Positions 8,569 through 55,494 of a stretch of 64,000 bases of DNA are shown in pieces. A program made the position numbers and the translations under genes. This DNA comes from an uncultured Candidatus Saccharibacteria bacterium (lineage in GTDB: Bacteria > Patescibacteriota > Minisyncoccia > Phycocordibacterales > Phycocordibacteraceae). Position 1 is the stretch's first letter, and the number at the start of each line of letters is the position of its first letter. The stretch is from assembly GCA_964569655.1 (NCBI GenBank), contig CAZMTN010000002.1:70197-134196 (forward strand). Direction: 5' to 3'. The notes beneath the pieces are model-generated. The model was not told the origin of the DNA. It saw only the letters and a list, made by a program, of their open reading frames with translations, and made no database searches.

Positions 8569-8573
8569 TCTGC

Positions 8574-23142: not shown

Positions 23143-23151
23143 AACGCCGTG

Positions 23152-23961
23152 TTAGTTTTTCGTATTTTCGGCTATTAAGTCCCGTAGTAATTCGTTCACA
23201 TCGATAGCTCTTGAGTTCTCCTGCATGAACTCAAACATCTTGAGAATCATTCTTTGGATTCCAGAGTTCTGAATCTCCAGGATCAGCTCTTCCTTAAGCG
23301 CCATCAGGTACAAGGAGTCCTTGAATACCCAGACTTGGCCGCCATGCTGAAAATATTTCTTATCCAATACGTTTACGCGTGCGGTCCGTCCCTCGAAATC
23401 ACGAGCCCAGTCTACGCCGAGCAGCCTGGTCTGTTCCTCGAACCAGCCTTCCGATGATACCGTCTCGGCGATGATGCGGTTCTTCTTTATGTCACGGTTT
23501 ACCTTGTTGGTCTCAGTCGGGGAGAACATGGCGTTCCACCCGGCTGTCGAGTTTCCTCCTTGGAAACTGTAGAAACGCTCATACTTATGCTCCGCGAACA
23601 GGTTGAGCATAAGCTTCTTGATAGCTTCAGCGCCTCGATGGATAGTCACTATCGAATCTGAGCGACCGTGAATGACTTCGCTGCCTTCGGGAATCTTAAG
23701 GAGTGAGCGCTTGAGATCGTATACAGAGCGGTCGATATCCTGTTCGTCGTTCAGGCGCCAGTGCTTGCGTCCATTGGTAATGTGCGAGGCCGCCAAACCG
23801 CGCTTCCGGAAGTTCTGGAGGGTAGCATAGACGGCCGAGCGGGAGACTCCCGTCTCCCGGGCTATCTTGAGAGGCGTATCTGCGCCATCCCGGAGGGCTA
23901 AAAGCGCCTTCTTCTCCTTGTTTGATAGCCCGAGCACCTGGAGGTCATCGTGTAGGGCCAT
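23152..23961 (-). CDS. TrmB-family transcriptional regulator
   Basis: N-terminal HTH LGLSNKEKKALLALRDGADTPLKIARETGVSRSAVYATLQNFRKRGL is TrmB-type. It sits in an island of visibly lower GC. Confidence 0.65.
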   Translation of the reverse strand: MALHDDLQVLGLSNKEKKALLALRDGADTPLKIARETGVSRSAVYATLQNFRKRGLAASHITNGRKHWRLNDEQDIDRSVYDLKRSLLKIPEGSEVIHGRSDSIVTIHRGAEAIKKLMLNLFAEHKYERFYSFQGGNSTAGWNAMFSPTETNKVNRDIKKNRIIAETVSSEGWFEEQTRLLGVDWARDFEGRTARVNVLDKKYFQHGGQVWVFKDSLYLMALKEELILEIQNSGIQRMILKMFEFMQENSRAIDVNELLRDLIAENTKN

Positions 23962-24173
23962 GAGGCTAGACTAGCAGAAACAGTCCTGTTTGTCCAGTTT
24001 TATAGACATAGTATGTGGATAAAAATACCCTTTATTTACTTTATATTATAGCCCTTGTTAGGTTTATGAAATACTAAAATATACTGTCAATGGTTCTAGG
24101 CGTATAGTTATTGCAGATCAAGCGCACATTGATAGGGCATCCCGCCCATCAAACCAACCTGAGGAGAAGTATC

Positions 24174-24842
24174 ATGGAAAGCATCGAAAAGCGGATTATC
24201 TCGGCTCATGACTGGGTCAGGACTGACGGCCGGGACTTTACGCCTCGCGGGCATAAGCCGGTGGGCGAAAGCTCAACCAGCGTAGATAAGATCTACGTCC
24301 CGTTCCTCAATACCACCTATGTGCTCGTGTTCGAAAGTTCATGGGCAACCATAGGCGGAACGAGGCAAGATGCCGTGCTCTATGCTTATGACCATCGCAG
24401 TGGCAACCGCCGTAAGGTGGATAGCCATACGATCCTCAACGGTCGTGATCCGCTGTCGAGTTTTTACCCGACAAAGATCCGAGCGGTCATAAGCTTTGTG
24501 ACGAAAGACGTACCCGCCTTTGACCACCCGTGTCCAACGGGTGAGGGGGAAATCTTTCGAGGTTGCTCTTTTGAAAGGAAGAGCAACGTACGTGTCCGTA
24601 TCTCCATGTGCAGGGAGCAGGAGGCTTCTTGCGAGATACGGGGCACGTATGCGATAGCCCACTTCAAGTCCGTCCGCCGGGGGTACTACGCGCCAGGATG
24701 GGAAGAAGAGAGCGTCGCCTCACAGCAATGGGAAACTGGTAAAGTCGAGAGCTCTGTTCTCACGAAGAGAAACATCTGTCGATTCTACAAGAAGTACCAT
24801 GCGGAGCTCCCGGCAATCGCGGGTGAGATCGGAGCGGGATGA
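24174..24842 (+). CDS. Hypothetical protein (222 aa)
   Basis: GAGGAG lies 7 nt upstream of the ATG, divergent from the TrmB gene across a very AT-rich intergenic region. A terminator follows. Confidence 0.5.
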   Translation: MESIEKRIISAHDWVRTDGRDFTPRGHKPVGESSTSVDKIYVPFLNTTYVLVFESSWATIGGTRQDAVLYAYDHRSGNRRKVDSHTILNGRDPLSSFYPTKIRAVISFVTKDVPAFDHPCPTGEGEIFRGCSFERKSNVRVRISMCREQEASCEIRGTYAIAHFKSVRRGYYAPGWEEESVASQQWETGKVESSVLTKRNICRFYKKYHAELPAIAGEIGAG

Positions 24843-24911
24843 AAACCCGCTTGGCAACAGAACCAAAAATCAAACTGCCGCGCTGGGCAGGATAAAGATA
24901 GGGCGCAAACT

Positions 24912-31576: not shown

Positions 31577-32215
31577 ATGCAATCAGACCCTCTTTTCATC
31601 GCATTCCAGCTCGCTATCCTCGTCTTTTCCATCGTCATCCACGAGGTGGCCCACGGCTTCGCCGCGAATGCGCTGGGAGACCCTACCGCCAAGCTCCAGG
31701 GTCGCTTGACCCTCAATCCGGTGAAGCATATCGACCCCGTGGGCTCGATACTCATCCCGGCGTTCCTCGTGCTCTCGAGCGCCGGCATCCTCTTCGGCTG
31801 GGCAAAGCCGGTGCCGTACAACCCGTACAACCTCCGGAACCAGCGCTGGGGCGAGGCCATCGTGGCTTCTGCCGGCGGTCTCACCAACATCTTCCTCGCG
31901 GTCGTATTCGGTCTTATCGCCCGCTTCGGGGTAGGGGAGCTGCCGGATCCGTTCGTCGCTATCGCCGCCATGACCGCGTTCGTGAATCTCTTCCTCGGCC
32001 TCTTCAACCTAATCCCGATCCCGCCCCTCGACGGATACACCGTGCTGCGCGGCCTCCTCCCGTACTCCATCGGCCAGAAGCTCTATGACTTCGAGAATCG
32101 CATGCGCGGGCTCGGCATTGCGGGACTCGTTCTCATTCTTTTCGTATTCTCGTTCGTGTTCGCTGCGCCGTTCTCCTACTTCGTGCAGTATCTGTTCGCG
32201 CTGCTGGTGGGATAG
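31577..32215 (+). CDS. Site-2 protease family (peptidase M50) membrane metalloprotease
   Basis: HEVAHG (HExxH) lies in the first transmembrane helix. There are multiple transmembrane segments and an LDG motif (PPLDGY). Confidence 0.8.
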   Translation: MQSDPLFIAFQLAILVFSIVIHEVAHGFAANALGDPTAKLQGRLTLNPVKHIDPVGSILIPAFLVLSSAGILFGWAKPVPYNPYNLRNQRWGEAIVASAGGLTNIFLAVVFGLIARFGVGELPDPFVAIAAMTAFVNLFLGLFNLIPIPPLDGYTVLRGLLPYSIGQKLYDFENRMRGLGIAGLVLILFVFSFVFAAPFSYFVQYLFALLVG

Positions 32216-32226
32216 GGTTCGAATCC
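32215..32226 (+). other. tRNA T-loop-like motif GGGTTCGAATCC at the left edge of the low-GC island
   Basis: Canonical T-arm/loop sequence, but with no acceptor, D or anticodon arms around it. It overlaps the stop of the M50 gene. Confidence 0.3.
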
Positions 32227-32256
32227 AAGTACGCCAGCTCGATATATACTCTTCTC

Positions 32257-32880
32257 ATGAGCATGGTTAATCTGTCCAGGCCACTAGAGGCATTTGGATT
32301 TGTTGAACGCGAATCAAAGAACGGGAAGCAGTTGTCCTTTAAATGTGGCCGAGATTTTCTCTATTACGCTCTCAATTTTTACTTTCCTGAGAAATTCAAC
32401 GCGACGGCCATCAGCCCTAGCGAAATTGATCGCAGGAAGCTCTTTGGAATAGTAGTTCCTAAATATCTTGCGTGGACCCAGCTGCAATTTCTGCGCATGC
32501 CGTACCTTCTTAAAAAGAATGGGTTAGCGCTTTCTATCAATAATAGGAAGATATCCTCATATCTGCGCTTTGTTTTTTGGAATCTGTTTTCTCGTATTTC
32601 ATACGAAGACGCTATGCAACAGATAGAACAGTGCGTTCGAGAGAACAAGGCATGCGCCATTGATGTGCCCGTTAGTAAGAAACTGCTCAACCTGCTTGAT
32701 CACGTCATGTTTGTATATGGGTACGATGATGAATATCTATACGTATTCGACACTCTCACCGTGCCCTACGTGCGCTATGAACGTCTACGCCATGATGTTC
32801 ACTATTACCGCCTCTCAAAGAAAATAATTGAGGGAAACTGGTCTATTTTCGGAAGAGTCTGGAAGGTCAGTAGGACTTAA
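32257..32880 (+). CDS. Hypothetical protein (207 aa) in the low-GC island; possibly a papain-like (C39/BtrH-like) cysteine peptidase
   Basis: Candidate Cys (FKCGRDFLYYALN) and His (LLDHVMFVYGYDDEYLYVFD) in an arrangement reminiscent of C39-like peptidases. Weak. Confidence 0.4.
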   Translation: MSMVNLSRPLEAFGFVERESKNGKQLSFKCGRDFLYYALNFYFPEKFNATAISPSEIDRRKLFGIVVPKYLAWTQLQFLRMPYLLKKNGLALSINNRKISSYLRFVFWNLFSRISYEDAMQQIEQCVRENKACAIDVPVSKKLLNLLDHVMFVYGYDDEYLYVFDTLTVPYVRYERLRHDVHYYRLSKKIIEGNWSIFGRVWKVSRT

Positions 32881-32884
32881 TAGC

Positions 32885-32912
32885 GGTTCCCACGTCGTAC
32901 CACAGCCCCAGC
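32885..32912 (+). repeat. Island repeat copy 1 (GGTTCCCACGTCGTACCACAGCCCCAGC)
   Basis: Read in the sequence directly after the stop of the 32257 gene, preceded by ACTTAATAGCGG. Confidence 0.6.
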
Positions 32913-32960
32913 TAACAAAAAGCTCCCACCCCAACTAAGAGGTGAGAGCTTGCAAGTGTG

Positions 32961-33503
32961 CTATCCGCTTTTTATCATGTTGCCGATTCGTCCGATAAAG
33001 CCCTGCTTCTTACCGCGGCTTTGAGAGACTTTCAAATCGGTTCGTGGGACGCGGTATTCGTATTTTTGATGCAGCATGGCGATTTCCACGTCGGGGTAAA
33101 CACGAACCCACGTTCTTCGCTGAATCTTCCGCTCTCTTTCGAAGCAGGTTTTCCCGTCTTCCACAGACCCCATTGGAAGAAAGTCGGATTCGGTCAGGAC
33201 GAGGTTGTGCGTGATTGTTTCCTTGCCAAGGTCTTCATCGAAATACAACTTTCCTAACTCCATGGTGGTGTCCCAATCATAGAATTTATCAACAGATGTT
33301 GGCGGGAGAGCCGGCATGAGCGCCAACATGAATTCTTGAAGTTTGGGGGCCGCATAGATGCCGGTGTTTGGCGCGACGATGAAATCAACGGTGTGCGTCC
33401 AGTAGCCGTGGGGCTCCGGGAAATACGTCCGCTCATCAACGGCAACGATTTGAATATTTGTATTGACTTGTAATGAACTGCGCACGATAGCGAGTTTGGA
33501 CAT
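32961..33503 (-). CDS. Hypothetical protein (180 aa), low-GC island
   Basis: Clear ORF in an AT-rich context; no motif. Confidence 0.45.
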   Translation of the reverse strand: MSKLAIVRSSLQVNTNIQIVAVDERTYFPEPHGYWTHTVDFIVAPNTGIYAAPKLQEFMLALMPALPPTSVDKFYDWDTTMELGKLYFDEDLGKETITHNLVLTESDFLPMGSVEDGKTCFERERKIQRRTWVRVYPDVEIAMLHQKYEYRVPRTDLKVSQSRGKKQGFIGRIGNMIKSG

Positions 33504-33574
33504 TTCCTATGTCTCCTCTGGTTTCAGCTGAAAAAACTATAGCACGTGCAGTCAGATTTTCAATGCTTCAGAAG

Positions 33575-33603
33575 GAGTCCCGTGTCGTACCGCAGCCCCA
33601 GCA
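33575..33603 (+). repeat. Island repeat copy 2 (GAGTCCCGTGTCGTACCGCAGCCCCAGC)
   Basis: About 23 of 28 positions are identical to copy 1. It is intergenic. Confidence 0.55.
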
Positions 33604-33757
33604 CTCATGCTCGGCGGTCATCGGAAACGACACATTAAGTAAACAAAAGGTATGTGAAAGCGTTGGAATAGCGTCTAAACGGGTCAATTCGGGCTTTATA
33701 GTTTATGCCGTGAAATCGCTTCAAGTCTCAGAGAGATTTTTCCGCTATACTAGATAG

Positions 33758-34066
33758 ATGCTTAAAAGGTACGTAGAGTATTTCAGGAATAACCCGAACC
33801 ACTACTGGTTCAAGCGAAAGATTTGGGGATGGGGTTGGACGCCAGTTACGTGGCAGGGGTGGCTGACTACTTTCATGTACATCGCGTTCGTTCTGCTGCT
33901 CGCACTTAACCGTGAAGAACCAATTCCCGGAAATCCCGACTCAGGAAGCAACTTCTTGATGCTTGGACTGCCAATCATTCTCCTGACCGCTGCTTTCATT
34001 TTTATCGCTTACAAGAAGGGAGAGAAGCCAAAGTGGCAGTGGGGATTGCCTGACAAGAAAGACTAG
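33758..34066 (+). CDS. Hypothetical small membrane protein (102 aa, Trp-rich N-terminus, 2 transmembrane segments)
   Basis: Hydrophobic helices FMYIAFVLLLAL and LGLPIILLTAAFIFIAY. Confidence 0.45.
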   Translation: MLKRYVEYFRNNPNHYWFKRKIWGWGWTPVTWQGWLTTFMYIAFVLLLALNREEPIPGNPDSGSNFLMLGLPIILLTAAFIFIAYKKGEKPKWQWGLPDKKD

Positions 34067-34230
34067 AAGAATGGCTCTGGACTCGAGCCAAGGTAAGGCC
34101 TCTCGATTCTCATTGAGTATCTAGTTGCCAGCTGCTGTCATGGAGCAGCACTTTTCTGCGCCAGCCCACGTCCTGAGCGTATTCAGATTAGGCAGCTCGT
34201 CATTTTCCGGGCCTTTGATAAGGTACTGCC

Positions 34231-34845
34231 ATGAACAGCCGACAGGCAGCGAACGTCTATAACTCAGCAGCGCCTGAATATCAGGGAAGGGTAAGGAAGC
34301 TTAAGCAGATCAAGAAAGATACGACCAAGATGCTTCTCGATCTCCTTAAGCCAGGCGATCACGTACTTGATGTCGGTTGCGCCGTAGGCTACGACACTTT
34401 AATGCTGAGCAAGAAATGCAAGACATACGGTATCGAAGTCTCACCAGAGATGGTAAGAAGAGCACGGCAAAGAAACCAGGAGGCTACTATTCTTGCGGGA
34501 GATTTTCTACAATACCCGTTCAAGCAGCAATTTAACGGCATCTTCGCAAATGCGTTCATCCATCTGTTCCCATCAGGCACTGATAAATTGGTTTTAAGGA
34601 AAATGCATCGAATCCTGAAATCTGGAGGCGCTGCGTATATCTCTACGACACGTGCCAATAGGTCCAAGGAGGGATGGTATCGGAAGAAGGATTATCTTAG
34701 CGAGGAGAAGAGATTTCGAAAATATTGGACTAAGCGCGGACTCGCTCAAGCTCTGAAGGAAACTGGCTTCAGCACGGTGCAATACTCTGAAGTCACTGAC
34801 CCTTTTAATAAGCGGTTCATGATTTACCTTGTTCGTAAGAATTAA
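34231..34845 (+). CDS. Class I SAM-dependent methyltransferase
   Basis: Motif I VLDVGCAVGYDT, motif post-I YGIEVS, and LKSGG. Confidence 0.7.
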   Translation: MNSRQAANVYNSAAPEYQGRVRKLKQIKKDTTKMLLDLLKPGDHVLDVGCAVGYDTLMLSKKCKTYGIEVSPEMVRRARQRNQEATILAGDFLQYPFKQQFNGIFANAFIHLFPSGTDKLVLRKMHRILKSGGAAYISTTRANRSKEGWYRKKDYLSEEKRFRKYWTKRGLAQALKETGFSTVQYSEVTDPFNKRFMIYLVRKN

Positions 34846-34855
34846 TGGCGAATTG

Positions 34856-34913
34856 GGTTCCCACGTCATACCACAGCCCATAACTTAATAGCGGCTCCTG
34901 TCGTATCGCTTCC
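34856..34913 (+). repeat. Island repeat copy 3 (GGTTCCCACGTCATACCACAGCCCATAAC) followed by a partial fourth copy (ACTTAATAGCGGCTCCTGTCGTATCGC)
   Basis: 25 of 28 positions are identical to copy 1. The trailing ACTTAATAGCGG also matches the sequence that precedes copy 1. Confidence 0.6.
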
Positions 34914-34970
34914 GTTTCATACACACGGAACCAGCCGCTACGAAGACACGTGGGGTAGAATGAGAGGGAA

Positions 34971-36398
34971 TTGCACATGGAAGACCAGGTACCAGCAACT
35001 AATCCGCCGCAGCCCACTCCGAATCCCGCGGATCCGCCTCCTGCGCCTCCGCCGCAGACATCCGGAGACGCGCCTCCGCAGCGCGTGTTCCGCACCTACG
35101 CCTCCGACATGGCCGCGCTCGGGCAGAAACCCGCGATGCCGACGCCGAAAACGCCAGTGCCTGCTCCAGCTCCCGTGAGCGGGCCCGCATACAATCCGAG
35201 CGAAGCGCCGCGCATCGTGCTGCCCCCGAAGCCCGCGCCGTCCTCCGGATTCCTGTCCGGCGTGTTCGGCAGGAAGGATGCAGACCTGAAGGTGACCGTC
35301 CTCCCTTCATCCGCTCCTTCCGCGTGGGCGTCCGCCCCTGCATACGCGCCACCTTCGCCGAAGCCCGAGGCCGAGGACCGCGATTCGATCCTCGCGCGGC
35401 TGAAGGCGCGCGCGCCAGAACCGCTCCCGCCCCTGCCGCCCGTGTTCCCGGCGCCGAAGGTCGAAGCAGCCCCGCCGCCGCCTCCGGCCGCCGCGCCGCA
35501 AGCGGACGAGCGCCTGCGCACCTATAGCGGAGACTTCTCGACGCGCGTGGATACGCAGCAGGCTTCCGCGTTCTCGGTGCTTGCGGCGCAGTCTGACGCG
35601 CAGCCGACCCCGGCGGCAACGCTGCCGCCGAAGAAGACGGACCACACCCTCATATTCATCATCGCCGGCACGGTCCTCATCGCCGGCGGCTCGCTCGCGC
35701 TTTATTACGCCTACTCCTTCCTCAAGAGCGAAGCGCCGGTAGAGATATTCACAACGGAACCACCGTCCCTCCTCTCAGGCGAAGAGACGTTCGCGCTCTC
35801 GGGATCGGGTCCCGCGCTCATCGATGCGCTCGCGGCAGAAGTCTCAGAGCCGCTCACCATCGGCAACGTGCGCGTCGCATTCCTCGAGGTCTCAAGCACG
35901 ACACCGACAGGCGTGGTCACGGAGAAGCAGCCGGGCGGAGCGCTCATCCGCGCGATGGAGCTCCATGCCCCGGACATCCTCCTGCGCAATATCACCGACA
36001 ACAGCACAGTGGGCATCATCCGAGCAGGGGAGGACACCCGAGTGTTCTTCGTGCTCGGGACGAACTCGTACGAGCGTACCTTCGCAGGCATGCTCTCCTG
36101 GGAAGCCACCATAGAGGAAGACCTCGCCGCTTTCTACCCGGCGCATCCGGAGCCGCTGCCGGTCATCGTCGCGACGACCACCGCAAGCAGCACCGCGTCT
36201 GCCACCACCACGCCCCCGGCGCCGGCGTTCGTCCCCGGCTTCGTAGATGCGGTCGTGGGAAGCCATGACGTCCGCCTCCTCCAGGACGCGCACGGCAGGA
36301 CAGTCCTCATCTACGGCTATCGGGACCAGCGCACCCTCATCATCGCCCGGGACGAGACCGCGTTCTCGGTGCTGCTCGCCCGCGTCGGGGCACAGTAG
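34971..36398 (+). CDS. Hypothetical single-pass membrane protein with a long proline-rich N-terminal region and an extracytoplasmic C-terminal domain
   Basis: PAPPPQ... stretches; transmembrane helix LIFIIAGTVLIAGGSLALYYAYSF. Confidence 0.55.
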   Translation: MHMEDQVPATNPPQPTPNPADPPPAPPPQTSGDAPPQRVFRTYASDMAALGQKPAMPTPKTPVPAPAPVSGPAYNPSEAPRIVLPPKPAPSSGFLSGVFGRKDADLKVTVLPSSAPSAWASAPAYAPPSPKPEAEDRDSILARLKARAPEPLPPLPPVFPAPKVEAAPPPPPAAAPQADERLRTYSGDFSTRVDTQQASAFSVLAAQSDAQPTPAATLPPKKTDHTLIFIIAGTVLIAGGSLALYYAYSFLKSEAPVEIFTTEPPSLLSGEETFALSGSGPALIDALAAEVSEPLTIGNVRVAFLEVSSTTPTGVVTEKQPGGALIRAMELHAPDILLRNITDNSTVGIIRAGEDTRVFFVLGTNSYERTFAGMLSWEATIEEDLAAFYPAHPEPLPVIVATTTASSTASATTTPPAPAFVPGFVDAVVGSHDVRLLQDAHGRTVLIYGYRDQRTLIIARDETAFSVLLARVGAQ

Positions 36399-42028: not shown

Positions 42029-43027
42029 GTGGCCTTACTCGATTCACGTAATCTCGTCATCTCAGGCTCGATCGTCATCGCGATGATCCTGGTTTTGGGC
42101 GCCTACATCGCTTCGGGACGCCATGTGCCGGTGCTCACCGTGAGCGCGGAATCCACCGAAGAAATCCTTAAGGAATACGCAGCGAAGGACTCCGACAAGG
42201 ACGGCCTCCCGGACTGGCAGGAAGCGCTCTACGGCACCGATCCCGAGAATCCGAATTCGGTCCGTGCGGATATCACAGACAGCCAGGCGGTTGCCCAAGG
42301 TCTCGCCACCCCTCGCTACGCGGGGCAGAGCATCCCGATCACCGCAGGAGGGGAGCCGATTTCGGTACCAGGCATCGTGGCGGCTCCTGATTCGCTCACC
42401 GAGCAGTTCTCGCGTCTTTTCTTCGAGAACTACCTCAGCACCCGCGGCAGCGAGGTGCCGTCCGCACAGGCGAGCCAGCAGTTCGTCACGAGCGCCGTGA
42501 GCGAGCTCGTCGCATCGCGCTCGCAGGTGAACGCGTACTCCGCGGAGGACATCAAGGTCAGCGGTTCGGGCGCAGGCGCGCTCCGCGCGTACGCGGCCGT
42601 TGCCGAGTCCACTATCCTGAGCCGCAATCCGGGACACGATGCCGGTACCGTAGCGTACTTCCAGGACGCGGTGCAGAAGGACGACAAAGAGGCACTCAAG
42701 AAAGTAGGGGAGATTGGCAGGGCAGTGGAGAGCGCGGCCAAAGCACTTACCCTGATCAACGTGCCGAGCGAAGCTGCTGCCGCTCACCTCACGTTCGTGA
42801 ACGCGATGGCCGGGCTCGCGAAGAGCACGCTCGACCTCGCCGCGTTCGACACCGATCCGCTGCGCGCCATGGTCGGCCTCGGGCTTTACGAGCAGAGCGT
42901 CCAGGAATACGGCGCGGCATACAAGGCCGTGTACCAGGTATTCGCGAGCGCGGGCGTGACGCTCAGTGCCGGGGAGCCGGGCTATGAGTTTTATACGTTC
43001 GCCCAATCAGCCGCTAACCTCTATTAG
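42029..43027 (+). CDS. Hypothetical membrane-anchored protein (N-terminal transmembrane segment), first gene of the T4SS-like cluster
   Basis: Transmembrane helix IVIAMILVLGAYIA. No motif. Confidence 0.5.
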   Translation: MALLDSRNLVISGSIVIAMILVLGAYIASGRHVPVLTVSAESTEEILKEYAAKDSDKDGLPDWQEALYGTDPENPNSVRADITDSQAVAQGLATPRYAGQSIPITAGGEPISVPGIVAAPDSLTEQFSRLFFENYLSTRGSEVPSAQASQQFVTSAVSELVASRSQVNAYSAEDIKVSGSGAGALRAYAAVAESTILSRNPGHDAGTVAYFQDAVQKDDKEALKKVGEIGRAVESAAKALTLINVPSEAAAAHLTFVNAMAGLAKSTLDLAAFDTDPLRAMVGLGLYEQSVQEYGAAYKAVYQVFASAGVTLSAGEPGYEFYTFAQSAANLY

Positions 43028-43029
43028 CC

Positions 43030-44499
43030 ATGAACCGCACCATCTCATTCGCGTTCGGCCTCCTGCTCATCCTCCCGATAGCGGTAACTTCCGTTCCGCG
43101 CCCGGCGCACGCCTTCATGGACGGCGGCGGATCCCTCATGCTCGTCGCGAAGGAGTACGGCCTCGACTCGGTCGCGTGGATCGTCGCGAAGCAGGCGGTG
43201 AGCGCCATGACGAGGAGCACGGTCAACTGGATCAATTCCGGATTCAACGGCTCTCCGGCGTTCATCACCAACCTCGACGAATTCCTTATGCACGTCGGCG
43301 ACGTAGCAGCGATGGCGTACATCGACGAGCTCCAGAACAATCCGTCTCTCAAATCACCCTTCCAGAACAAGATCGCTCAGACGGCGTACACGGGCTATCT
43401 CCTCGCGACGTCCGAGGACGCCTATGTGCGTCTCAATGGCTACGACCTCAACCAGGTAACCTACTACGACGAGGAATTCCTCAGAGGGAATTTCGGTCGC
43501 GGCGGATGGGACGCATGGTTCGCAGCCGCGATGCGTCCGCAGAATAATCCGTATGGCGCGCAGATGCTCGCCATGAACGGCCTCGAGGTGGCGGTGAGCG
43601 GATCGAGGAACAACCGTTTGATCGAGCTTAACTGGGGCGGGGGATTCATGTCGTGGTGCGATAACGTAGGCGCGGGCGAGACGTACGAGGACGCGGAAGG
43701 CGGAGCCATGATCGACAACAACGGCAATTTCGTCGGCACGCCGGGCTCTCCGGAGCTCGATGCGGAGGCGCAGGTGGCGGCAGGAAATTTCGTAAACACC
43801 AGCCAGCCGAATCCGGCGGAGACCTGCACGGACCAGCACGGCAACAAGGGGCAGATCAAGACGCCGGGTTCGGTGATCCGCGACCAGATCAACCATACCC
43901 TCGGCCTTTCGGGAGACCAGCTCGTCTCCGCGGACGAGCTCAATGAGATCGTCTCGGCGCTCATGTCGCAGCTCACGCAGCAGGTGATGGGCGCAGGCGG
44001 CCTCTCGGGAGTGTCGCGTTCCTCGAGCGGCGGACGATCGTATCTCGACAGGGCGGCGTCTGATCCTGCTGGAGCGCAGGCAGCAGCGGGCACCCTGGAT
44101 ACCGCCATCATCTCGTACCGGACGCAGCTCCAGGGATATGAGAGGGATTGGGAGACGCTCAATACGCAGATCGAGGCCGCATCATGCTCTAACGATCCGG
44201 TTGTGACCGGCGCGAGAGCGGATTACGCCCGCGCCCAGGCACAGATCTCGACTGCCTTCACCAGGCTCGACGAGGTTCAGAACCTCATGAGCTCCGTGAA
44301 TTCAGGGGCAGGGGGCGGGGGCGAAGCGATCGGCGTGATTGAGAGCGCAAGCAGCAAATTCCAGAGCATCATCTCGTCCCCGCCGACCGCAGCGGAGATG
44401 GCGAGGATCAACGCAGAGGCCGTTGATAATTCCAGCAGCGAGAACGGCCAGGAAACGCTCTACGTGAAGCTCGAGGAAGAGGCGCGAAGATGCAGGTAA
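43030..44499 (+). CDS. Hypothetical secreted protein (signal peptide, 489 aa)
   Basis: Signal peptide with an AHA cleavage site. Translationally tight with its neighbours. Confidence 0.5.
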   Translation: MNRTISFAFGLLLILPIAVTSVPRPAHAFMDGGGSLMLVAKEYGLDSVAWIVAKQAVSAMTRSTVNWINSGFNGSPAFITNLDEFLMHVGDVAAMAYIDELQNNPSLKSPFQNKIAQTAYTGYLLATSEDAYVRLNGYDLNQVTYYDEEFLRGNFGRGGWDAWFAAAMRPQNNPYGAQMLAMNGLEVAVSGSRNNRLIELNWGGGFMSWCDNVGAGETYEDAEGGAMIDNNGNFVGTPGSPELDAEAQVAAGNFVNTSQPNPAETCTDQHGNKGQIKTPGSVIRDQINHTLGLSGDQLVSADELNEIVSALMSQLTQQVMGAGGLSGVSRSSSGGRSYLDRAASDPAGAQAAAGTLDTAIISYRTQLQGYERDWETLNTQIEAASCSNDPVVTGARADYARAQAQISTAFTRLDEVQNLMSSVNSGAGGGGEAIGVIESASSKFQSIISSPPTAAEMARINAEAVDNSSSENGQETLYVKLEEEARRCR

Positions 44500-44505
44500 T
44501 ACGCT

Positions 44506-46737
44506 ATGGGAATCTGGAACACACTACAAACTTTCACTAAGAAGATGATGTCGGACGCCAAAGCGCGCCCGCTGTCGTTCCTTATCTTCGTAGCGGTGTT
44601 CCTTCTTTCCCCAGCAATCGCATTCGCTCAGGTAAAAACTGGCGATGCCGCGGCGTCAAACCCTTTCTCGGTCTTGGGCGACTGGACCGTAGGTGCCGCG
44701 TTCGCCGGCATCAGCTACTCCATCCTCACATTCTCGAACTTCATCCTTTACATGGCGGGGTCTCTTTTCAATTGGGTAGTGGAGTACACCGTCTTCGGGT
44801 TTGCGAACATCATCGGCGGGACCGTGGGACTCATCGCGGCATGGAGCGTACTCAGGGATATCGCTAATATCGCGCTCCTTTTCGGATTCATCTTCATCGG
44901 CGTAGCGACCATATTGGACATCCACGGATACGAGGCGAAGAAGACGCTCCCGAGACTTATCATCTTCGCCGTGCTCCTGAACTTCAGCCTCCTCGCATCG
45001 CAGATGGTCATAGATACGTCGAACATCTTTAGCGCGGCCATCTATCAGCAGGCAGGCGGGCAGGAGTGCAACGCTATAGATAAGAAAGCGTGCGCGAATA
45101 ACGGCATCTCGGGGAAGATAGCGCAGATGTCGGGGATTACTACGCTGTTCGATTTCAGCCAGAAGAGCGCTGAAACCGACGCTTCTTTCACGCGGTGGGG
45201 CATTACCTATCTCATGATGTCCGTGTTCGTAACCATCACGGCCGTGGTGCTCCTTGCAGGAGCCATCATGCTCATCATCCGAGCGGTGGTCCTGATCTTC
45301 CTCATGGTCTTGTCTCCGATAGGCTTCGCGGGCCTCGCTATCCCGCCCCTCGAGCAGCATGCGCGCACCTGGTGGAGCAAGCTCATATCCCAATCCTTCT
45401 TCGCGCCGGTTTTCCTGCTGCTGATCCTGGTAAGCATCAAGATAGCAGAGGGGATCCAGACGTCGCTCAAGGCACCGACGCTCGTGCATGCGCTCACAAG
45501 CGGGGACGTGAACACGGTCCAGGCCGTCGTCCTGTTCGCGATCTTCATCGGGTTCATGATCATGTCCTTGGTCGCGGCGCAGCGCATCGGCGCTATCGGC
45601 GCTGGATTCGCCGCGAACGCTTCGTCGGCACTCGTATACGGTTCGATGGCGTACGGCGCCAATACCGTGGTCGGCGGCGGCTCATACCTCGCTCGCAAGA
45701 CCATAGAGAGAAAGAGCAAGGGCGGGAAAGTAGCGCGCGCGGTGGTGAACTATGGATTCCGTCCGCTCGAGAACGCGAATCTCGACATGCGCAGGATGCC
45801 GGGCATGGCGGCTGCGCTCGGCGTGGGCGGAATCACGACCGGCGCGAAACCGGTAGAGCATGGCACGTTTAAGGACGTCAAGCATATATATGATGGCTTC
45901 AGGAACATGGAGACCAATAAGAGGCTGAACGCGCAGTATGACGACGAAAGGGATGCGCTTAGGCTCGAGAAGGAGGCGCATGGCCCGGGAGCGCTTTCTG
46001 CGGCCAGCCTCAAATACCTGAGCGGCCTGAGTGCGAAGGAGCTCGAAGCGCTCCACGGCATCCAGGAGGGCCTCGAGAAGCTCGCATACAACCTCTCACC
46101 TGAGCAATTCGAGGCGCTCATGAAGAGCGAGAAGCTCAGCGACATGCAGAAGGGCAAGCTGAAGGAAGGCCGCTTCGCGAAGCTCACTGGCCACGCGCAG
46201 GACGCTGCGAACGCTGCGAATCCGACAGCGAAGGCGACTGAGGTCGCGAAGGTGAAAGCTGAGCTTAAGAAGCTGAACAAGAGCGACCTCGAGAATCTCC
46301 CTGCGGCCCTCCTTGAGAAGCAAGGGGCGGGCGAGATCGTGCTCGCAGAGCTCTCCGAGAAGCAGCGCGAGGACCTCGCGGGGAGCAAGAAGCGAACTGG
46401 CGGGGAGCGGGATAACGTGCGCACCAGCAGCCCGATCGGGCTATTGGAAGAGAAGTTCAATAACGCTCCTACTCTGTCAGCTGGGGCTCGAGCGGTACGA
46501 AGTGAGATCGGCAACCTGACGCCTGCCCAGGTGGGCCAGCTGGATTCGAAGATCCTGATCCAGCCGGAAGTTTCTGAGGCGCTGACGCAACCGATCCTTA
46601 CGGAACTCCAGGAGAAGAAGAAGCTGAAGGTCAAAGAGATGAAGGCTATCGGCGACAATATTCGCAAGAGTTCCGCTGTCGCGCCGAAGCTTAAGGAGTT
46701 CGTAACTACCGGCCCAGGCGCAGCTATGTGGTCATAA
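44506..46737 (+). CDS. TrbL/VirB6-like polytopic membrane protein with a long charged coiled-coil C-terminal extension (743 aa)
   Basis: Signal-like N-terminus, 6 or more transmembrane helices in the first ~400 aa, and a K/E-rich C-terminus. It sits next to VirB4-like and VirB3-like genes. Confidence 0.55.
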   Translation: MGIWNTLQTFTKKMMSDAKARPLSFLIFVAVFLLSPAIAFAQVKTGDAAASNPFSVLGDWTVGAAFAGISYSILTFSNFILYMAGSLFNWVVEYTVFGFANIIGGTVGLIAAWSVLRDIANIALLFGFIFIGVATILDIHGYEAKKTLPRLIIFAVLLNFSLLASQMVIDTSNIFSAAIYQQAGGQECNAIDKKACANNGISGKIAQMSGITTLFDFSQKSAETDASFTRWGITYLMMSVFVTITAVVLLAGAIMLIIRAVVLIFLMVLSPIGFAGLAIPPLEQHARTWWSKLISQSFFAPVFLLLILVSIKIAEGIQTSLKAPTLVHALTSGDVNTVQAVVLFAIFIGFMIMSLVAAQRIGAIGAGFAANASSALVYGSMAYGANTVVGGGSYLARKTIERKSKGGKVARAVVNYGFRPLENANLDMRRMPGMAAALGVGGITTGAKPVEHGTFKDVKHIYDGFRNMETNKRLNAQYDDERDALRLEKEAHGPGALSAASLKYLSGLSAKELEALHGIQEGLEKLAYNLSPEQFEALMKSEKLSDMQKGKLKEGRFAKLTGHAQDAANAANPTAKATEVAKVKAELKKLNKSDLENLPAALLEKQGAGEIVLAELSEKQREDLAGSKKRTGGERDNVRTSSPIGLLEEKFNNAPTLSAGARAVRSEIGNLTPAQVGQLDSKILIQPEVSEALTQPILTELQEKKKLKVKEMKAIGDNIRKSSAVAPKLKEFVTTGPGAAMWS

Positions 46738-46740
46738 GGT

Positions 46741-47346
46741 ATGAATAACGAGATTCCTACAGAGCGCGTCCTAGAGGCATACGGAGCCGCACCGAGCTTC
46801 GTTCGCGAAGCGTTCAATGCCGAGAAGACCACCACATTCCTCGTATATCTCCGCGAGAAGTACGGGTTCCATATTGATACCGCAGGCATGCTAGGGAAGC
46901 AGGTGGGCTACCTCTTGCTCGGCCTCGTAAACCCTTCCGATTTCTACCGCGCCATCGTCGCGGCCGGCATGAGCGAGGATATCGCTAAGAAGGTGACTGA
47001 GGAGATCAACCAGAACATCTTCATGCCGCTCAATCAGGGGCTGCGCGCAAGCAACATGGAGGTAGTCCGCACTCCGCCTCCGCCTCCGCCGGCTGTTGCC
47101 CGGCCTATGCCAGCTTCCGAGCCTCCGATGGTGGTGCGTACGTTGCCTCCCCTCCAGGCGGCTCCGCCTATACCGGTGAAAGCTCCTCAGCCTGCTTCCG
47201 TACCGCCTCCGCCTCCAACGCCGCGTCCCGTTCCTCCAGTACCCGCGAATCTTCCCGGGGTGGCACCGGAGCCTAAGACGGCCATTCCGGCTCCTCGTCC
47301 GGCAAGCAAGTACGGCGCAGATCCATACCGAGAGAGCTTTGATTAG
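46741..47346 (+). CDS. Hypothetical protein with a proline-rich C-terminal half
   Basis: PPPPPPAVARP...PPPPTPRPVPPVP. Confidence 0.45.
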   Translation: MNNEIPTERVLEAYGAAPSFVREAFNAEKTTTFLVYLREKYGFHIDTAGMLGKQVGYLLLGLVNPSDFYRAIVAAGMSEDIAKKVTEEINQNIFMPLNQGLRASNMEVVRTPPPPPPAVARPMPASEPPMVVRTLPPLQAAPPIPVKAPQPASVPPPPPTPRPVPPVPANLPGVAPEPKTAIPAPRPASKYGADPYRESFD

Positions 47347-47386
47347 CCTTGTCTTGCGCGAGGGCCTTGGTACCATTCATATATAT

Positions 47387-47761
47387 ATGAGCGAATCGCC
47401 CCCGAGCAGAGAGAGCGTCTCACGGCCAGAAAGAGGAGTAGAGGGCACGCCATACACGGCACCTGTAGACGTGGCTTCGGACTCCGATAGCTCAGAACTC
47501 AGCCAAGTGCGCGCGAATCTCGAGAAGCATAAGGAGCAGCCAGCTTCGGCGAGCGGCAGTCACGGTCATGGCCACGAGAGTCCCGTGACGAAGGTCGGCA
47601 TGGTCGGATACGGCATCGTCGCCACCATGTTCTATCTCTTCTGGCAGGAGCTCAAGAAGACCAAGGGCCTGTTCGAAGGAGGCGGCGGGGGAGGCCACGG
47701 CGGAGGCGGGCACGCGAAGAAAGAAGACCACGGACACGGCGGAGGCGGGCACGGGCACTAG
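47387..47761 (+). CDS. Hypothetical small membrane protein with a His/Gly-rich C-terminal tail
   Basis: Transmembrane helix VGMVGYGIVATMFYLFW; tail GGGGGGHGGGGHAKKEDHGHGGGGHGH. Confidence 0.4.
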   Translation: MSESPPSRESVSRPERGVEGTPYTAPVDVASDSDSSELSQVRANLEKHKEQPASASGSHGHGHESPVTKVGMVGYGIVATMFYLFWQELKKTKGLFEGGGGGGHGGGGHAKKEDHGHGGGGHGH

Positions 47762-47804
47762 TTATTACCTTTTTCAATACGCACTCCTGCTATACTTATA
47801 GCTA

Positions 47805-48215
47805 ATGGAGTATCAGGTTCCTCAATTCATCGAGGTAGAGGACAAGATCTTTGGCCCATTCACGCTGAAGCAATTCATTTATATCGCCGGCGGCGCGGGC
47901 GTCACCGCCATCGCGTTCATCTACCTCCCGATGATCTTCGCGCTCCTCGTAGCGCTTCCGGTCGCGGGACTCGCCGGCGCGCTTGCGTTCTACCGGATGA
48001 ACAACAAGCCGTTCATCAACGTCATGGAGGCGTGGTTCACCTACTTCACCGGCGGGAAGCTCTATATCTGGAAGAAGGGGGACAAGGTGGCGGAAGCGAC
48101 GCCGACGGTCCAGCCCCAGGTAGAGGAGGCGCGGGCGAAGCTGAAGCTCACGCCGAACAAGCTGCATGACATCGCGTGGTCGCTCGACGTGAAGAATAGC
48201 GAGCCACAACCGTAA
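47805..48215 (+). CDS. PrgI/VirB3-like small membrane protein of type IV secretion systems
   Basis: The N-terminus QFIEVEDKIFGPFTLKQFIYIAGGAG, followed by two transmembrane helices, matches the PrgI-family pattern. It lies directly upstream of the VirB4-like genes. Confidence 0.5.
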   Translation: MEYQVPQFIEVEDKIFGPFTLKQFIYIAGGAGVTAIAFIYLPMIFALLVALPVAGLAGALAFYRMNNKPFINVMEAWFTYFTGGKLYIWKKGDKVAEATPTVQPQVEEARAKLKLTPNKLHDIAWSLDVKNSEPQP

Positions 48216-48216
48216 T

Positions 48217-48846
48217 ATGGCTACTGCAAGCGCAACCCAGTCATTCGTGCCGGTAAAGGAAGTACGCAACGGCGTCATCATCCTCAAGAACGGGGAATAC
48301 CGGGGCATCCTCATGTGCTCCTCGCTCAACTTCGCGCTCAAGTCGGAGACGGAGCAGCGCGCCATCATCGGCGGCTTCCAGAATTTCCTCAATACCCTCG
48401 ACTTCTCCGTGCAGATCAACGTGCATTCTCGCAAGATGGATCTGCGCCCGTACCTCGAACTCCTTTCCGCGCGCACGGACGCGCAACAGAGCGAGCTCAT
48501 GAAGATCCAGGTACGGGAATACATGCAGTTCGTCCGCAGCTTCTCGGACAACGCGAACATCATGACCAAGATGTTCTACATCGTCGTGCCGTACACGCCG
48601 GCGGTAGCGTCCCAGGTGAAAAGCGCGCTCCCGTTCTTCCAGAAGGAGACTTCGGCGACGCAAGGAACCACGAGCTCCTTCGACGAATACCGCGTCCAGC
48701 TCGAGCAGCGAATGTCTTTGGTCGCGAGCGGGCTCTCTTCTACGGGGCTCCGCGCGGTGATGCTCGGCACCGAGGAGGTGATCGAGCTCCTGTACCGCTC
48801 GTTCAACATCGGCGAGCTCGAGAGCCCGATCAGGCTCACCCAATAA
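48217..48846 (+). CDS. Hypothetical 209-aa protein in frame with the downstream VirB4-like ATPase; possible detached VirB4 N-terminal domain
   Basis: A single TAA at 48844-48846 separates it from the ATG at 48850 in the same reading frame. Confidence 0.5.
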   Translation: MATASATQSFVPVKEVRNGVIILKNGEYRGILMCSSLNFALKSETEQRAIIGGFQNFLNTLDFSVQINVHSRKMDLRPYLELLSARTDAQQSELMKIQVREYMQFVRSFSDNANIMTKMFYIVVPYTPAVASQVKSALPFFQKETSATQGTTSSFDEYRVQLEQRMSLVASGLSSTGLRAVMLGTEEVIELLYRSFNIGELESPIRLTQ

Positions 48847-48849
48847 CCT

Positions 48850-50664
48850 ATGTCCTTGCTTGATTTCATAAACCGAAAAAAGAAAGAGGAAGTACAGGTC
48901 ACTCCTGTGCTCCCCAAGGACATCTACGCGCAAGGTACCCTCGACCTCGCGGACACGATTGCGCCGGCGGCGCTCAAGGTTGGCGCTCGCGAGATCGAGC
49001 TCGGCCAGAAGTTCGCTCGCTCGTTCTATACGATTTCATACCCCCGCTTCCTCGCGGACAGCTGGTTCACACCGATCATCAATCTCGACAAGGTGCTCGA
49101 CATCAGCATCTTCATCCACCCGATTGAGACCGGCATGGTGCTCCGCCAGTTCCAGAAGAAGGTGGCCGAGGTACAGAGCCAGATCTCGGAGAGGGAACAG
49201 AAGGGCTTGGTCCGCGACCCGGTCCTCGATACGGCATACCAGGACCTCGAGGGGCTCCGGGACAACCTCCAGCAGGCGCAGGAGAAGCTCTTCGAAGTAG
49301 GCCTCTACCTCACGCTCTACGCGGACTCCAAGGAGGAGCTCGACAAGACGGAAGGGGAGGTGCGCGGCATCCTCGACGCCAAGCTCGTGTACACCAAGCC
49401 GGCCGTCTTCCAGCAGGAGCAGGGCTTCCGCTCCACGCTCCCGCTCGAGCTCGACGAGCTCGCGGTGCGCTCGAAGCTGAATTCCTCTCCGCTCTCGTCC
49501 ATGTTCCCGTTCGTCTCCTTCGACCTTACGAGCGACCGAGGCATCCTCTTCGGCATCAACCGCCATAACTCATCTCTCATCCTCTTCGACCGGTTCTCGC
49601 TCGAGAACTACAACTCGGTGGTCTTCGCGAAGTCCGGTTCCGGAAAGTCCTACGCGATGAAGCTCGAGATCCTACGCTCCCTCATGTTCGATACGGACGT
49701 GATCGTCATCGACCCGGAACGCGAATACGAATACCTCGCCGAAGCGACGGGCGGGCGCATGTTCAATATCTCGCTCTCGAGCGAGCACCATATCAACCCG
49801 TTCGACCTGCCTGCGGTCCGCGAGGACGAGGAGCCGGCCGATATCCTGCGCAGCAACATCATCAACCTCGTCGGGCTCTTCCGTATCATGCTCGGCGGCC
49901 TCACGCCCGAAGAGGATGCCATCGTCGACCGCGCCATCACGGAGACCTATGCCCTCAAGGACATCACGGGGGAGAGGGACTTCACCGGCGTCCAGCCGCC
50001 GCTCCTCTCGGACTTCGAGGCGGTACTCGCCGGCATGGAGGGAAGCCAGTCCCTGGTCCAGCGCCTTTCTAAATACACCCGCGGCACCTGGTCCGGCTTC
50101 ATGAACCAGCCGACCAATATCGACATCAACAAGCAGTTCATCGTCTTCTCCGTCCGCGATATGGAGGATGAATTGAAGCCGGTGGCGATGTACATCATCT
50201 CCCACTTCATCTGGAACGCGGTGCGCCGCGAACTGAAGAAGCGCCTCCTCGTGATCGATGAGGCATGGTGGATGATGAAGTCTGAGGACACGGCGTCTTT
50301 CCTGTACTCCCTCGCGAAGCGCGGACGCAAGTACTATCTTGGCGTTGCGACCGTCACCCAGGACGTGGAGGACTTCCTCGCATCCCCGTACGGCAGGCCG
50401 ATCCTCACGAACTCCTCCATCCAGATGCTCCTCAAGCAATCCCCGACGACCATCGACGTCCTCCAGAAAACGTTCAACCTCACGGAAGAGGAGAAATACC
50501 TTCTCCTCGAATCAGGAGTAGGGGAGGGCCTCTTCTTTGCTGGCCTCAAGCACGTCGCCATCAAGGTCGTCGCTTCCTACACGGAGGATCAGATCATCAC
50601 GTCGGATCCGTCCCAGCTCCTCCAGATCAAGCGCGAGAAGAGCCGGCTGGATGGCGCCGCCTAA
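48850..50664 (+). CDS. VirB4/TrbE/CagE-family type IV secretion ATPase (C-terminal ATPase portion, 604 aa)
   Basis: Walker A AKSGSGKSY, Walker B LLVIDEAWWM, and C-terminal motifs TQDVEDF. Confidence 0.85.
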   Translation: MSLLDFINRKKKEEVQVTPVLPKDIYAQGTLDLADTIAPAALKVGAREIELGQKFARSFYTISYPRFLADSWFTPIINLDKVLDISIFIHPIETGMVLRQFQKKVAEVQSQISEREQKGLVRDPVLDTAYQDLEGLRDNLQQAQEKLFEVGLYLTLYADSKEELDKTEGEVRGILDAKLVYTKPAVFQQEQGFRSTLPLELDELAVRSKLNSSPLSSMFPFVSFDLTSDRGILFGINRHNSSLILFDRFSLENYNSVVFAKSGSGKSYAMKLEILRSLMFDTDVIVIDPEREYEYLAEATGGRMFNISLSSEHHINPFDLPAVREDEEPADILRSNIINLVGLFRIMLGGLTPEEDAIVDRAITETYALKDITGERDFTGVQPPLLSDFEAVLAGMEGSQSLVQRLSKYTRGTWSGFMNQPTNIDINKQFIVFSVRDMEDELKPVAMYIISHFIWNAVRRELKKRLLVIDEAWWMMKSEDTASFLYSLAKRGRKYYLGVATVTQDVEDFLASPYGRPILTNSSIQMLLKQSPTTIDVLQKTFNLTEEEKYLLLESGVGEGLFFAGLKHVAIKVVASYTEDQIITSDPSQLLQIKREKSRLDGAA

Positions 50665-50670
50665 TCCTCT

Positions 50671-51132
50671 ATGGAACAGCAGGCAAAGGACAACGGCGCT
50701 TCGCAAGAGAAAAAGAAGCGCATCGGAAACGTTACTGCCGTCCTGATGATCTTCACGGCGGTCTTGTTCGACCTCGCGCAGGGGCTATTGTTCTTCCTGA
50801 ATCCTATCCCCGTCCTCGGGTTCATGCTCGACCTGGTAGCATCTTATTTCATCACGTTCGTCTCCGGAGCCGTATTCCTCCTCTGGTTCATGCTGTGTCG
50901 CGTGAACTACTTCGATTCCCGGTCCGCGAAGAAGTTCTTCATCGTGCTCATTGCCGGTATCGTCGAGCTCACGCCCTTCATAGACACGCTGCCCGGCATA
51001 AGCCTGGGCGTCATCGCCCTCGTCGTCCAGGTGCGTCTCGAGGACCGGAGCTCGAAGAAGGCCGTGCAGAAGCTGGCAGGACGCAAGCTCCGTCCGATGC
51101 GCGGCATTAATCCGCAGGCCCACCGTCCGTAG
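50671..51132 (+). CDS. Hypothetical small membrane protein (3-4 transmembrane segments)
   Basis: Hydrophobic helices; sits in the T4SS-like cluster. Confidence 0.45.
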   Translation: MEQQAKDNGASQEKKKRIGNVTAVLMIFTAVLFDLAQGLLFFLNPIPVLGFMLDLVASYFITFVSGAVFLLWFMLCRVNYFDSRSAKKFFIVLIAGIVELTPFIDTLPGISLGVIALVVQVRLEDRSSKKAVQKLAGRKLRPMRGINPQAHRP

Positions 51133-51159
51133 CAGGGAACAGGGCGGTATACTACAGTC

Positions 51160-53174: not shown

Positions 53175-53177
53175 CGT

Positions 53178-55161: not shown

Positions 55162-55184
55162 GCGTGATTCCTATTGTATGCGCT

Positions 55185-55490: not shown

Positions 55491-55494
55491 AGGA

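Follow-up and report, generated by a model that had tools for sequence, protein, structure and literature searches.

What placed four small genes and three copies of a 28-nucleotide (nt) repeat in an AT-rich patch of an otherwise GC-rich patescibacterial genome? The locus lies in a stretch of 64,000 nt (positions 70,197 to 134,196 of contig CAZMTN010000002.1, assembly GCA_964569655.1, from an uncultured Candidatus Saccharibacteria bacterium), the whole of which is called the window here; the island occupies window positions 32216-34914. The initial annotation had taken the repeats for attachment-site remnants or recombination sites that separate mobile gene cassettes, with a tRNA-like boundary, and had likened them to integron attC sites or miniature inverted-repeat transposable elements (MITE). 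The cassette and attachment-site part of this view was strengthened by two further sequences that contain the repeat (L010 and L032), by a relative with other cargo (L025) and by a split repeat copy; the two analogies had to be given up. We consider it probable that the locus is a tRNA-Gln-linked additive island, in which self-contained single-gene cassettes are arranged in tandem by site-specific recombination at an asymmetric 28-nt site, with the recombinase acting in trans.

A 28-nt repeat in an AT-rich island

The GC content was 0.44-0.51 across positions 32001-35000 (in 500-nt windows) as compared to about 0.60-0.66 for most of the window, which agrees with the low-GC island described initially. 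It rose to 0.73 in the 500 nt right after the island, and the source contig, which is of patescibacterial origin, has about 62% GC overall. Between an M50 peptidase gene and a gene for a 475-residue protein, the island contains four genes in three repeat intervals; it can be divided into three or four units, mostly of a single gene (one interval holds two genes). The four small genes are present as reported, and their strand order is +, -, +, + rather than alternating.

The repeat was found at the three positions given earlier (Table 1), each time on the + strand, and the copies are 690 and 1281 nt apart. Over a 24-nt core the identities of copies 1, 2 and 3 are 100, 79 and 96%. When all 28 nt are compared, copy 2 has 23 identities and so does copy 3, fewer than the 25-28 that had been counted. 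A search with a 21-mer core allowing up to three mismatches gave 3 matches, as against 0.00 expected in shuffled sequences, and none elsewhere in the 64 kb. Similarly, a sequence model of the repeat built from 13 copies matched only the three window copies (E-values 4e-10 to 1e-6). The association of the repeat with the 12-mer ACTTAATAGCGG was confirmed; it occurs exactly at 32875, where it forms the end of open reading frame 1 (ORF1) and runs into copy 1, and again at 34883, after copy 3. Because the second ACTTAATAGCGG is followed by a decayed partial repeat, a 16-nt block made of the ORF1 end and the repeat start (32875-32890, family D11) is duplicated, with 94% identity. The partial fourth copy proposed initially holds only as part of this duplicate; GGCTCCTGTCGTATCGC alone (34893-34909) was undetected by the repeat model. 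We read 34883-34909 as the remnant of a further, deleted unit.

The copies often lie 0-25 nt after a stop codon or just past the hairpin of a terminator, and the distance from there to the following start codon is 7-156 nt. A coding role of the repeat was rejected because the copies follow stop codons in differing frames, and a promoter role was rejected because -35/-10 elements are absent and the distance to the next start is so variable. Folding of four copies with their flanks, on both strands, gave z-scores of -0.4 to -2.0 and no common hairpin. The repeat has no inverted-repeat structure, no palindrome and no target duplication.

The left edge of the island is related to a tRNA gene. As the initial annotation had recognized, the T-arm sequence GGTTCGAATCC is present at 32216, directly past the M50 stop codon, and it is part of a longer, 23-nt match to the 3' end of tRNA-Gln. 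With the next base included, positions 32216-32238 agree at 20 of 24 positions with the last 24 nt of a tRNA-Gln gene region in the Candidatus Adlerbacteria locus described below, and a pattern of that 3' end with 19 fixed bases had its single window match here (0 expected by chance). A72 and G73 fit glutamine identity. Integrases whose crossover point is in the T-loop leave such a T-loop-to-3'-end block at the site, and here a displaced, co-oriented 3' tRNA fragment marks the island endpoint, which is one of the Islander criteria (PMC4383910). The fragment itself is no tRNA gene: Rfam and ARAGORN searches of the 64-kb window gave neither a tRNA gene nor an RNA family, an intact tRNA gene is absent from the window, and the island contains no Rfam family at gathering or permissive thresholds. 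The 28-mer has GGTTC.AA (5') and CCAT..CC(C)AGC (3') in common with the tRNA-Gln 3' block, matching at 16 of 23 positions with a 6-nt gap. This is suggestive of a 28-mer descended from, or mimicking, a tRNA-Gln attachment block.

Copies, cargo and borders in related sequences

Searches of public collections showed that the family recurs in two other sequences, with unrelated flanks. In a scan of Joint Genome Institute (JGI) metagenomes, only one of 10 matches, L010, extends past the search pattern. In this 1.1-kb contig (43% GC), GGTTCCCACGTCGTACCACAGCCCCA at 327-352 is identical to copy 1 across 26 nt; one ORF stops 22 nt before it and another starts 30 nt after it. The two ORFs are unrelated, the flanks are unrelated to the window, and the edges of homology are sharp. 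GTDB species representatives, a set from which the window's genome is absent, gave six single matches to TCCCRYGTCRTACCRCAGCCC in unrelated high-GC genomes, which we took as chance since about 4 were expected by our estimate. Degenerate 21-mer scans of public collections mostly returned chance matches in high-GC coding DNA. Of two scans of IMG/VR, the first gave none and the second five matches within one homologous high-GC phage gene, which are irrelevant here. On sequence grounds, we take the repeat to be a true family and not a chance local similarity.

The second sequence, L032, is a contig of a Candidatus Adlerbacteria metagenome-assembled genome (MAG; GCA_028286685.1), of which 16.5 kb was examined. 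It contains about 12 copies of the variant GGTTCCAACATCGTCCCATACACCCAGC, which is identical to the window repeat at 22 of 28 positions; nine are full, one is split and one is decayed. All are on the + strand, 300-1753 nt apart, and are confined to 6.4 kb of the 16.5 kb. The conserved part of the site measures 28-39 nt. About 11 intervals contain one gene each, and the functions encoded are unrelated: a 124-residue protein and several small proteins of no known function, Barstar, a 530-residue PG_binding repeat protein, a nucleotidyltransferase-like protein, a SET-domain protein, an ORF2 homologue, a glyoxalase-fold protein and a DUF2975 protein. Many units close with a terminator-like hairpin just ahead of the repeat. 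The array (3.0-9.8 kb of the locus) has 39-50% GC as compared to 54-62% in its flanks, a contrast like that of the window island. It begins about 290 nt downstream of a tRNA-Gln(UUG) gene at 2659-2730 (ARAGORN; Rfam 65.5 bits). The gene for the 530-residue PG_binding_1 protein also includes six tandem 153-nt coding repeats (4181-5103).

Several features of these loci are consistent with recombination at the repeat. In L032, an extended unit (hairpin, TTCTTCTTTTGCTACAAT, repeat, AAATTC) occurs at 3419-3500 and again at 8567-8705. In the latter, 55 nt are inserted into the repeat after GGTTCCAACATCGT, at position 14 of the 28-mer. The inserted DNA starts with TACCACA, which resembles the right half of the window-type site, and ends with CAGGTCG, which resembles its left half. 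A split copy with such complementary half-site ends resembles what would be expected of integration into the centre of a site. Assembly breaks also fall on the repeats. Among De Bruijn contigs assembled independently from public read sets (Logan), L001 ends and L009 starts on copy 1 with an overlap of exactly those 28 nt, and L033 runs from one L032 repeat to the next. The L032 breaks are accounted for by repeat units that exceed the assembler's word size. Since the window has no copy identical to copy 1, the break there implies that another identical copy with other flanks was present in that sample. In both arrays, the most decayed copies are those farthest from the tRNA end.

The cargo differs between relatives. 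In the closest relative reached, L025, the M50 protein is 92% identical and the L28-M50 synteny is the same. Between the same flanks, however, L025 (locus 1154-1711) has a different 160-residue gene, with a weak match to the 2',5'-RNA ligase family, and a terminator. This is the comparison with a related genome that the initial annotation had proposed, and it revealed other cargo at the M50 locus. Homology of the window with L025 stops on the left at TAGGGT, immediately before the tRNA fragment, and restarts on the right at TTTCATACACAC (34915). L025 also shows a faint likeness to the tRNA-Gln fragment after M50 (GGGTATACTGCGCCGGGC), and the sequence TTCATTCCGCAGCCAGC after its own gene faintly resembles the repeat over its right two-thirds. 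Neither of these remnants was detected when the repeat model was run on L025.

Individual cassette genes were also traced. In L020, the 3' end of a tRNA-Met gene is duplicated perfectly over 22 nt, and the closest homologue of ORF1 (74% identical) comes right behind this duplicate. DNA homology of the ORF1 units of L020 and the window runs from exactly TCGATATATAC to the stop codon; in the window, TCGATATATAC adjoins the tRNA-Gln fragment. ORF1 units thus stand behind tRNA 3' ends in two genomes. An ORF2 homologue (P0245, 62% identical) lies between two repeat copies inside the L032 array.

Weighing the explanations

In the preferred additive-island reading, Adlerbacteria-like Patescibacteria would use a site-specific gene-insertion system for which the 28-mer serves as recombination site. 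DNA with one site, in circular form or from a donor, would recombine with a resident site, which may be the tRNA-Gln T-loop/3' end or an existing repeat, and every event would add one unit between direct copies. Growth of the array would have a polarity, with older, distal copies decaying, and the recombinase would be encoded outside the array and act in trans. The hotspot here lies between the M50 protease gene and the 475-residue gene, without an adjoining intact tRNA. These data suggest a compact gene-capture hotspot with no integrase nearby. What the sequences show are the repeats and their family, the layout of the arrays, the tRNA fragment and the changing cargo; recombination, its polarity and an enzyme acting in trans are inferred.

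A number of observations count against this proposal. A Pfam scan of 49 window ORFs gave no integrase, resolvase or transposase domain, as the initial annotation had noted for integrases; XerD and resolvase probes (two probes) had no match in the window either. No recombinase was found among the called genes of the 16.5 kb of L032, and neither the four island ORFs nor the L032 cassette ORFs have a recombinase domain. The repeat consensus has no conserved hairpin and none of the dyad symmetry that would be expected of core sites for tyrosine or serine recombinases. The likeness of the 28-mer to the tRNA-Gln block, at only about 16 of 23 positions with a 6-nt gap, may be coincidence. The family occurs in only three independent sequence sources, and the repeat is absent from the contexts of ORF1 homologues L020-L024 and of the other ORF2 homologues (L028-31, L034 and L035). 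ORF2 in the window and its homologue in L032 point in opposite directions with respect to the repeats, which fits poorly with a cassette consisting of a gene plus its own site. Finally, neither an excision circle nor an empty site was observed.

Other readings of the repeat itself have to be considered. It could be a small selfish or structural intergenic repeat, of the repetitive extragenic palindromic (REP) or MITE type, that spread into the gaps of a horizontally acquired AT-rich island, so that the repeats were inserted between genes and not the genes between repeats. The repeat is short, most ORF1 and ORF2 homologues elsewhere lack it, and the variable orientation of the ORF2 homologues would also be understandable. 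However, terminal inverted repeats, a palindrome and a target duplication are all absent; the roughly 14 copies of the two arrays are co-oriented and clustered, within 2 kb of the 64-kb window and 6.4 kb of the 16.5 kb of L032; the regular one-gene intervals adjoin a tRNA or tRNA fragment; and the cargo varies between relatives at a fixed locus. We regard this explanation as unlikely, and the missing terminal inverted repeats and the clustering of co-oriented copies speak against the MITE analogy in particular. A cis-acting expression signal shared by the island genes, either an operator for a regulator or a signal with tRNA-like ends for RNA processing or RNA 3' ends, seems equally improbable to us. 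Its appeal comes from the intergenic placement of the copies at the distances from stop codons, terminator hairpins and start codons given above, and from the resemblance of the repeat ends to a tRNA 3' end. Such a signal would leave unexplained the split copy, the contig breaks, the tRNA anchoring and the cargo turnover, and the repeat shows no conserved secondary structure or significant folding, no match to an Rfam family, no sigma-70-like promoter within it and a highly variable distance to the start codon. That the similarity arose by chance or by a functionless local duplication has next to no likelihood. The window has only three clear copies, two of them with 5 mismatches in 28 nt, which would favor this possibility, but zero copies are expected in shuffles, and the copies in L010 and L032, two independent sequences of other organisms with unrelated flanks, effectively refute it.

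Known arrays of short sites offer further comparisons. attC sites are about 55-141 nt long and form imperfect palindromes with R''-L''/L'-R' pairing, and IntI and attI beside the array are not required for a cluster of attC sites lacking integron-integrases (CALIN). The single-ORF units with a conserved repeat after the stop codon and the integron-like cargo (glyoxalase, nucleotidyltransferase-like and small membrane proteins, many unknowns) would be in keeping with a CALIN that has unusually short attC sites. Yet there is no RYYYAAC/GTTRRRY core pair, GTTCCCA/GTTCCAA does not fit GTTRRRY and has no inverse partner within 150 nt, and no imperfect palindrome or bottom-strand hairpin was found. 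The conserved site has 28-39 nt as against the 55-141 nt of attC, the units have promoter-like and terminator-like elements of their own, and an IntI-like gene was not found in the window (49 ORFs, XerD probe) or among the called genes of L032. An integron-type array is therefore very unlikely, and the attC analogy, including the hairpins that it predicted, did not hold up against the fold scores. Even less credible is a set of Xer/dif-like sites, as in integrative mobile elements exploiting Xer (IMEX) or plasmid dif (pdif) modules. A dif site has 28 nt, with two partly palindromic 11-nt arms around a 6-nt spacer, and the chromosomal dif lies opposite the origin. The repeat has this length and bounds small integrase-less modules, but its sequence on inspection lacks the 11-6-11 dyad architecture, its copies are direct and not alternating, and the island lies about 22 kb from dnaA/dnaN, near the origin and not the terminus. 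A clustered regularly interspaced short palindromic repeats (CRISPR) array, in which repeats of 28-37 nt are separated by spacers of about 25-70 nt, was rejected since successive copies stand 690 and 1281 nt apart in the window, the spacings in L032 are 300-1753 nt, and genes occupy the intervals.

Placed among described systems, the array is like integron arrays and CALINs in its ordered single-ORF cassettes, array-specific site, distal decay and miscellaneous, mostly unknown cargo. Unlike in integrons, the site has half the length of the shortest attC and neither core sites nor a hairpin, the cassettes are self-transcribed, and the anchor is a tRNA 3' end and not attI by intI. In its workings, to judge by analogy, the array would be more like an integron, yet the features that define integron membership are not there. 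With the pdif and IMEX modules of Acinetobacter it shares small integrase-less modules and 28-nt sites, presumably moved in trans by a chromosomal recombinase, and it differs from them in having no XerC/XerD-type dyad arms, in its direct rather than alternating sites and in a location away from the terminus. In the additive flexible genomic islands of Alteromonas, the inserted cassettes are followed by "tell-tale" tRNA direct repeats (PMC4898812). Our array resembles these and tandem tRNA islands (PMC4383910, PMC4898812) in the hotspot at a tRNA 3' end, the varied and AT-rich cassettes, the cargo that differs between close relatives, the direct repeats past cassettes, which may be related to the tRNA 3' part, and the T-loop-to-3'-end block at the boundary. 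It is unlike them in that its units measure 0.3-1.8 kb with one gene (once two), as against multi-gene islands each with an integrase; in that the conserved 28-mer, at about 70% similarity and with a 6-nt indel, does not plainly copy the tRNA segment; and in that no integrase is near, with the window island lacking an adjoining intact tRNA and the L032 array having tRNA-Gln. The Prochlorococcus tycheposon islands (bioRxiv 10.1101/2020.12.28.424599) are likewise tRNA-seeded in a streamlined host, with older elements pushed distally and partial tRNAs or remnants. Tycheposons are elements of several kb with tyrosine recombinases and replication modules, whereas our arrays have no hallmark genes and consist of single accessory-gene units, each with promoter-like and terminator-like elements of its own. 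Of the known kinds, the tRNA-gene-linked additive island comes closest, not the integron.

Cassette genes, surroundings and significance

The positions of the features are collected in Table 1.

Table 1. Features of the island and its borders (window coordinates)
Feature	Position	Strand	Description
M50 peptidase gene, left flank	31577-32215		Pfam E 3e-13
tRNA-Gln 3'-end fragment	32216..32238	+	GGTTCGAATCCAAGTACGCCAGC; T-loop, T-stem 3' strand, acceptor 3' strand, G73, C
ORF1, cassette gene 1	32257..32880	+	207-residue papain-fold (C39/staphopain-like) cysteine peptidase homologue, 43% GC
Repeat copy 1	32885..32912	+	GGTTCCCACGTCGTACCACAGCCCCAGC; model 35.5 bits, E 4e-10
Terminator-like hairpin	32920..32951	.	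between convergent ORF1 and ORF2; 13-bp stem, T run on - strand; also seen in folds
ORF2, cassette gene 2	32961..33503	-	180 residues, no assigned function
Repeat copy 2	33575..33602	+	GAGTCCCGTGTCGTACCGCAGCCCCAGC; 23/28; model 24.3 bits, E 1.4e-6
ORF3, cassette gene 3	33758..34066	+	102-residue Trp-rich putative membrane protein; sub-threshold DUF2207_C only
ORF4, cassette gene 4	34231..34845	+	204-residue class I S-adenosylmethionine-dependent methyltransferase; Methyltransf_23/25/11, E 1e-15 to 2e-17
Repeat copy 3	34856..34883	+	GGTTCCCACGTCATACCACAGCCCATAA; core 23/24, 3' end diverged; model 24.8 bits, E 1e-6
ORF1 3'-end duplicate fused to decayed partial repeat	34883..34909	+	ACTTAATAGCGG fused to GGCTCCTGTCGTATCGC
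Right boundary	34915..34926		TTTCATACACAC; homology with relative L025 restarts and runs on into the 475-residue gene (alignment)
475-residue proline-rich gene, right flank	34971-36398		

ORF1 has 192 homologues, all in Patescibacteria and in varied genomic contexts, and Cys30 and His149 are invariant in the family. Its AlphaFold2 model (predicted local distance difference test, pLDDT, 92.9) matched staphopain, the C39 domain of PCAT1 and the C39-like peptidase 3erv in Foldseek searches (E 7e-5 to 6e-4), so the label "C39-like" of the initial annotation stands at the level of the fold. The 15 homologues of ORF2 are also all patescibacterial. Its model (pLDDT 88) had no significant match in a fold search of the PDB, and a promoter-like site, TTGAAA-16-TATAGT (10/12), lies at 33563-33536 on the - strand. 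PHROGs and NCBIfam searches with the island ORFs gave only generic methyltransferase matches, and BLAST searches with the island DNA found no match in phage and plasmid collections.

Two contexts of ORF2 homologues contain elements of another kind. L028 has, at 154-2177, a reverse transcriptase and a bAvd accessory gene with a 129-nt repeat pair that is 81% identical (1559/2049), which looks like a diversity-generating retroelement a few kb from the ORF2 homologue. L034 has, at 1-2298, three repeats of about 98 nt, about 197 nt apart, upstream of an ORF that weakly matches the IS110 family (Transposase_20).

A conserved and strongly structured non-coding element, not present in the window, lies directly after the tRNA gene in L032 (2731-2960, tRNA-Gln) and L020 (5757-5928, tRNA-Met), and also at the start of L021. 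In L032 and L020 it contains an inverted copy of the 3' end of its own tRNA, split by a 21-nt hairpin. Almost every base of the hairpin stem differs between the two while the pairing stays perfect, and the two elements have the 15-mer GATTCGAAAGCCGGA in common. In L020, a 22-nt stretch of the tRNA-Met 3' end stands on both sides of the element as a perfect direct repeat, so that it looks like a very small integrated element. The fold z-scores were -3.7 to -5.5 for the strand with the tRNA-like copy and -2.0 to -5.3 for the other strand. Should the integron-like capture system considered below exist, the element could be part of its machinery.

Elsewhere in the window, dnaA (55736-57082) and dnaN (57329-58429) lie with yidC (- strand) within 54430-58429; their presence places the replication origin region of the chromosome within the window, at a distance of about 22 kb from the island. 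Positions 42029-54425 contain a cluster of mostly unannotated ORFs, including a TraG/VirB4-like P-loop ATPase (48850-50664) and, at 52143-53174, a protein with a weak type IV secretion system pilin domain; the cluster may be a type IV secretion or conjugation-like system. Two other low-GC patches lack the 28-mer. The one at 23150-24900 contains a TrmB-like helix-turn-helix regulator (23152-23961, - strand) and a 243-residue protein, and the one at 62106-62904 a GNAT acetyltransferase. A match to ACTTAATAGCCG at 23169 (- strand), in the first patch, was rejected as chance; it is located within the 3' end of a gene.

In the literature searched, we found no description of such arrays in Patescibacteria. 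A more far-reaching possibility, which we put forward tentatively and hold to be rather doubtful, is that Patescibacteria of the Adlerbacteria/Paceibacteria type have an undescribed integron-like capture system, with self-transcribed single-gene cassettes added in succession at a tRNA-Gln-derived hotspot, an asymmetric 28-nt site and a recombinase encoded elsewhere. Since the 28-nt site has no dyad symmetry, the recombinase could be of an unusual type, and if a new kind of recombinase does use it, such a short asymmetric target would be of interest in itself. Patescibacteria (the Candidate Phyla Radiation) have tiny genomes with few recognizable mobile elements, and the route by which they exchange accessory genes is unclear. 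The array signature would provide a concrete, searchable marker of gene flux in these organisms, and the 28-nt punctuation site a defined DNA handle for finding the responsible recombinase. The array would also account for a class of AT-rich islets and assembly breaks in patescibacterial MAGs.

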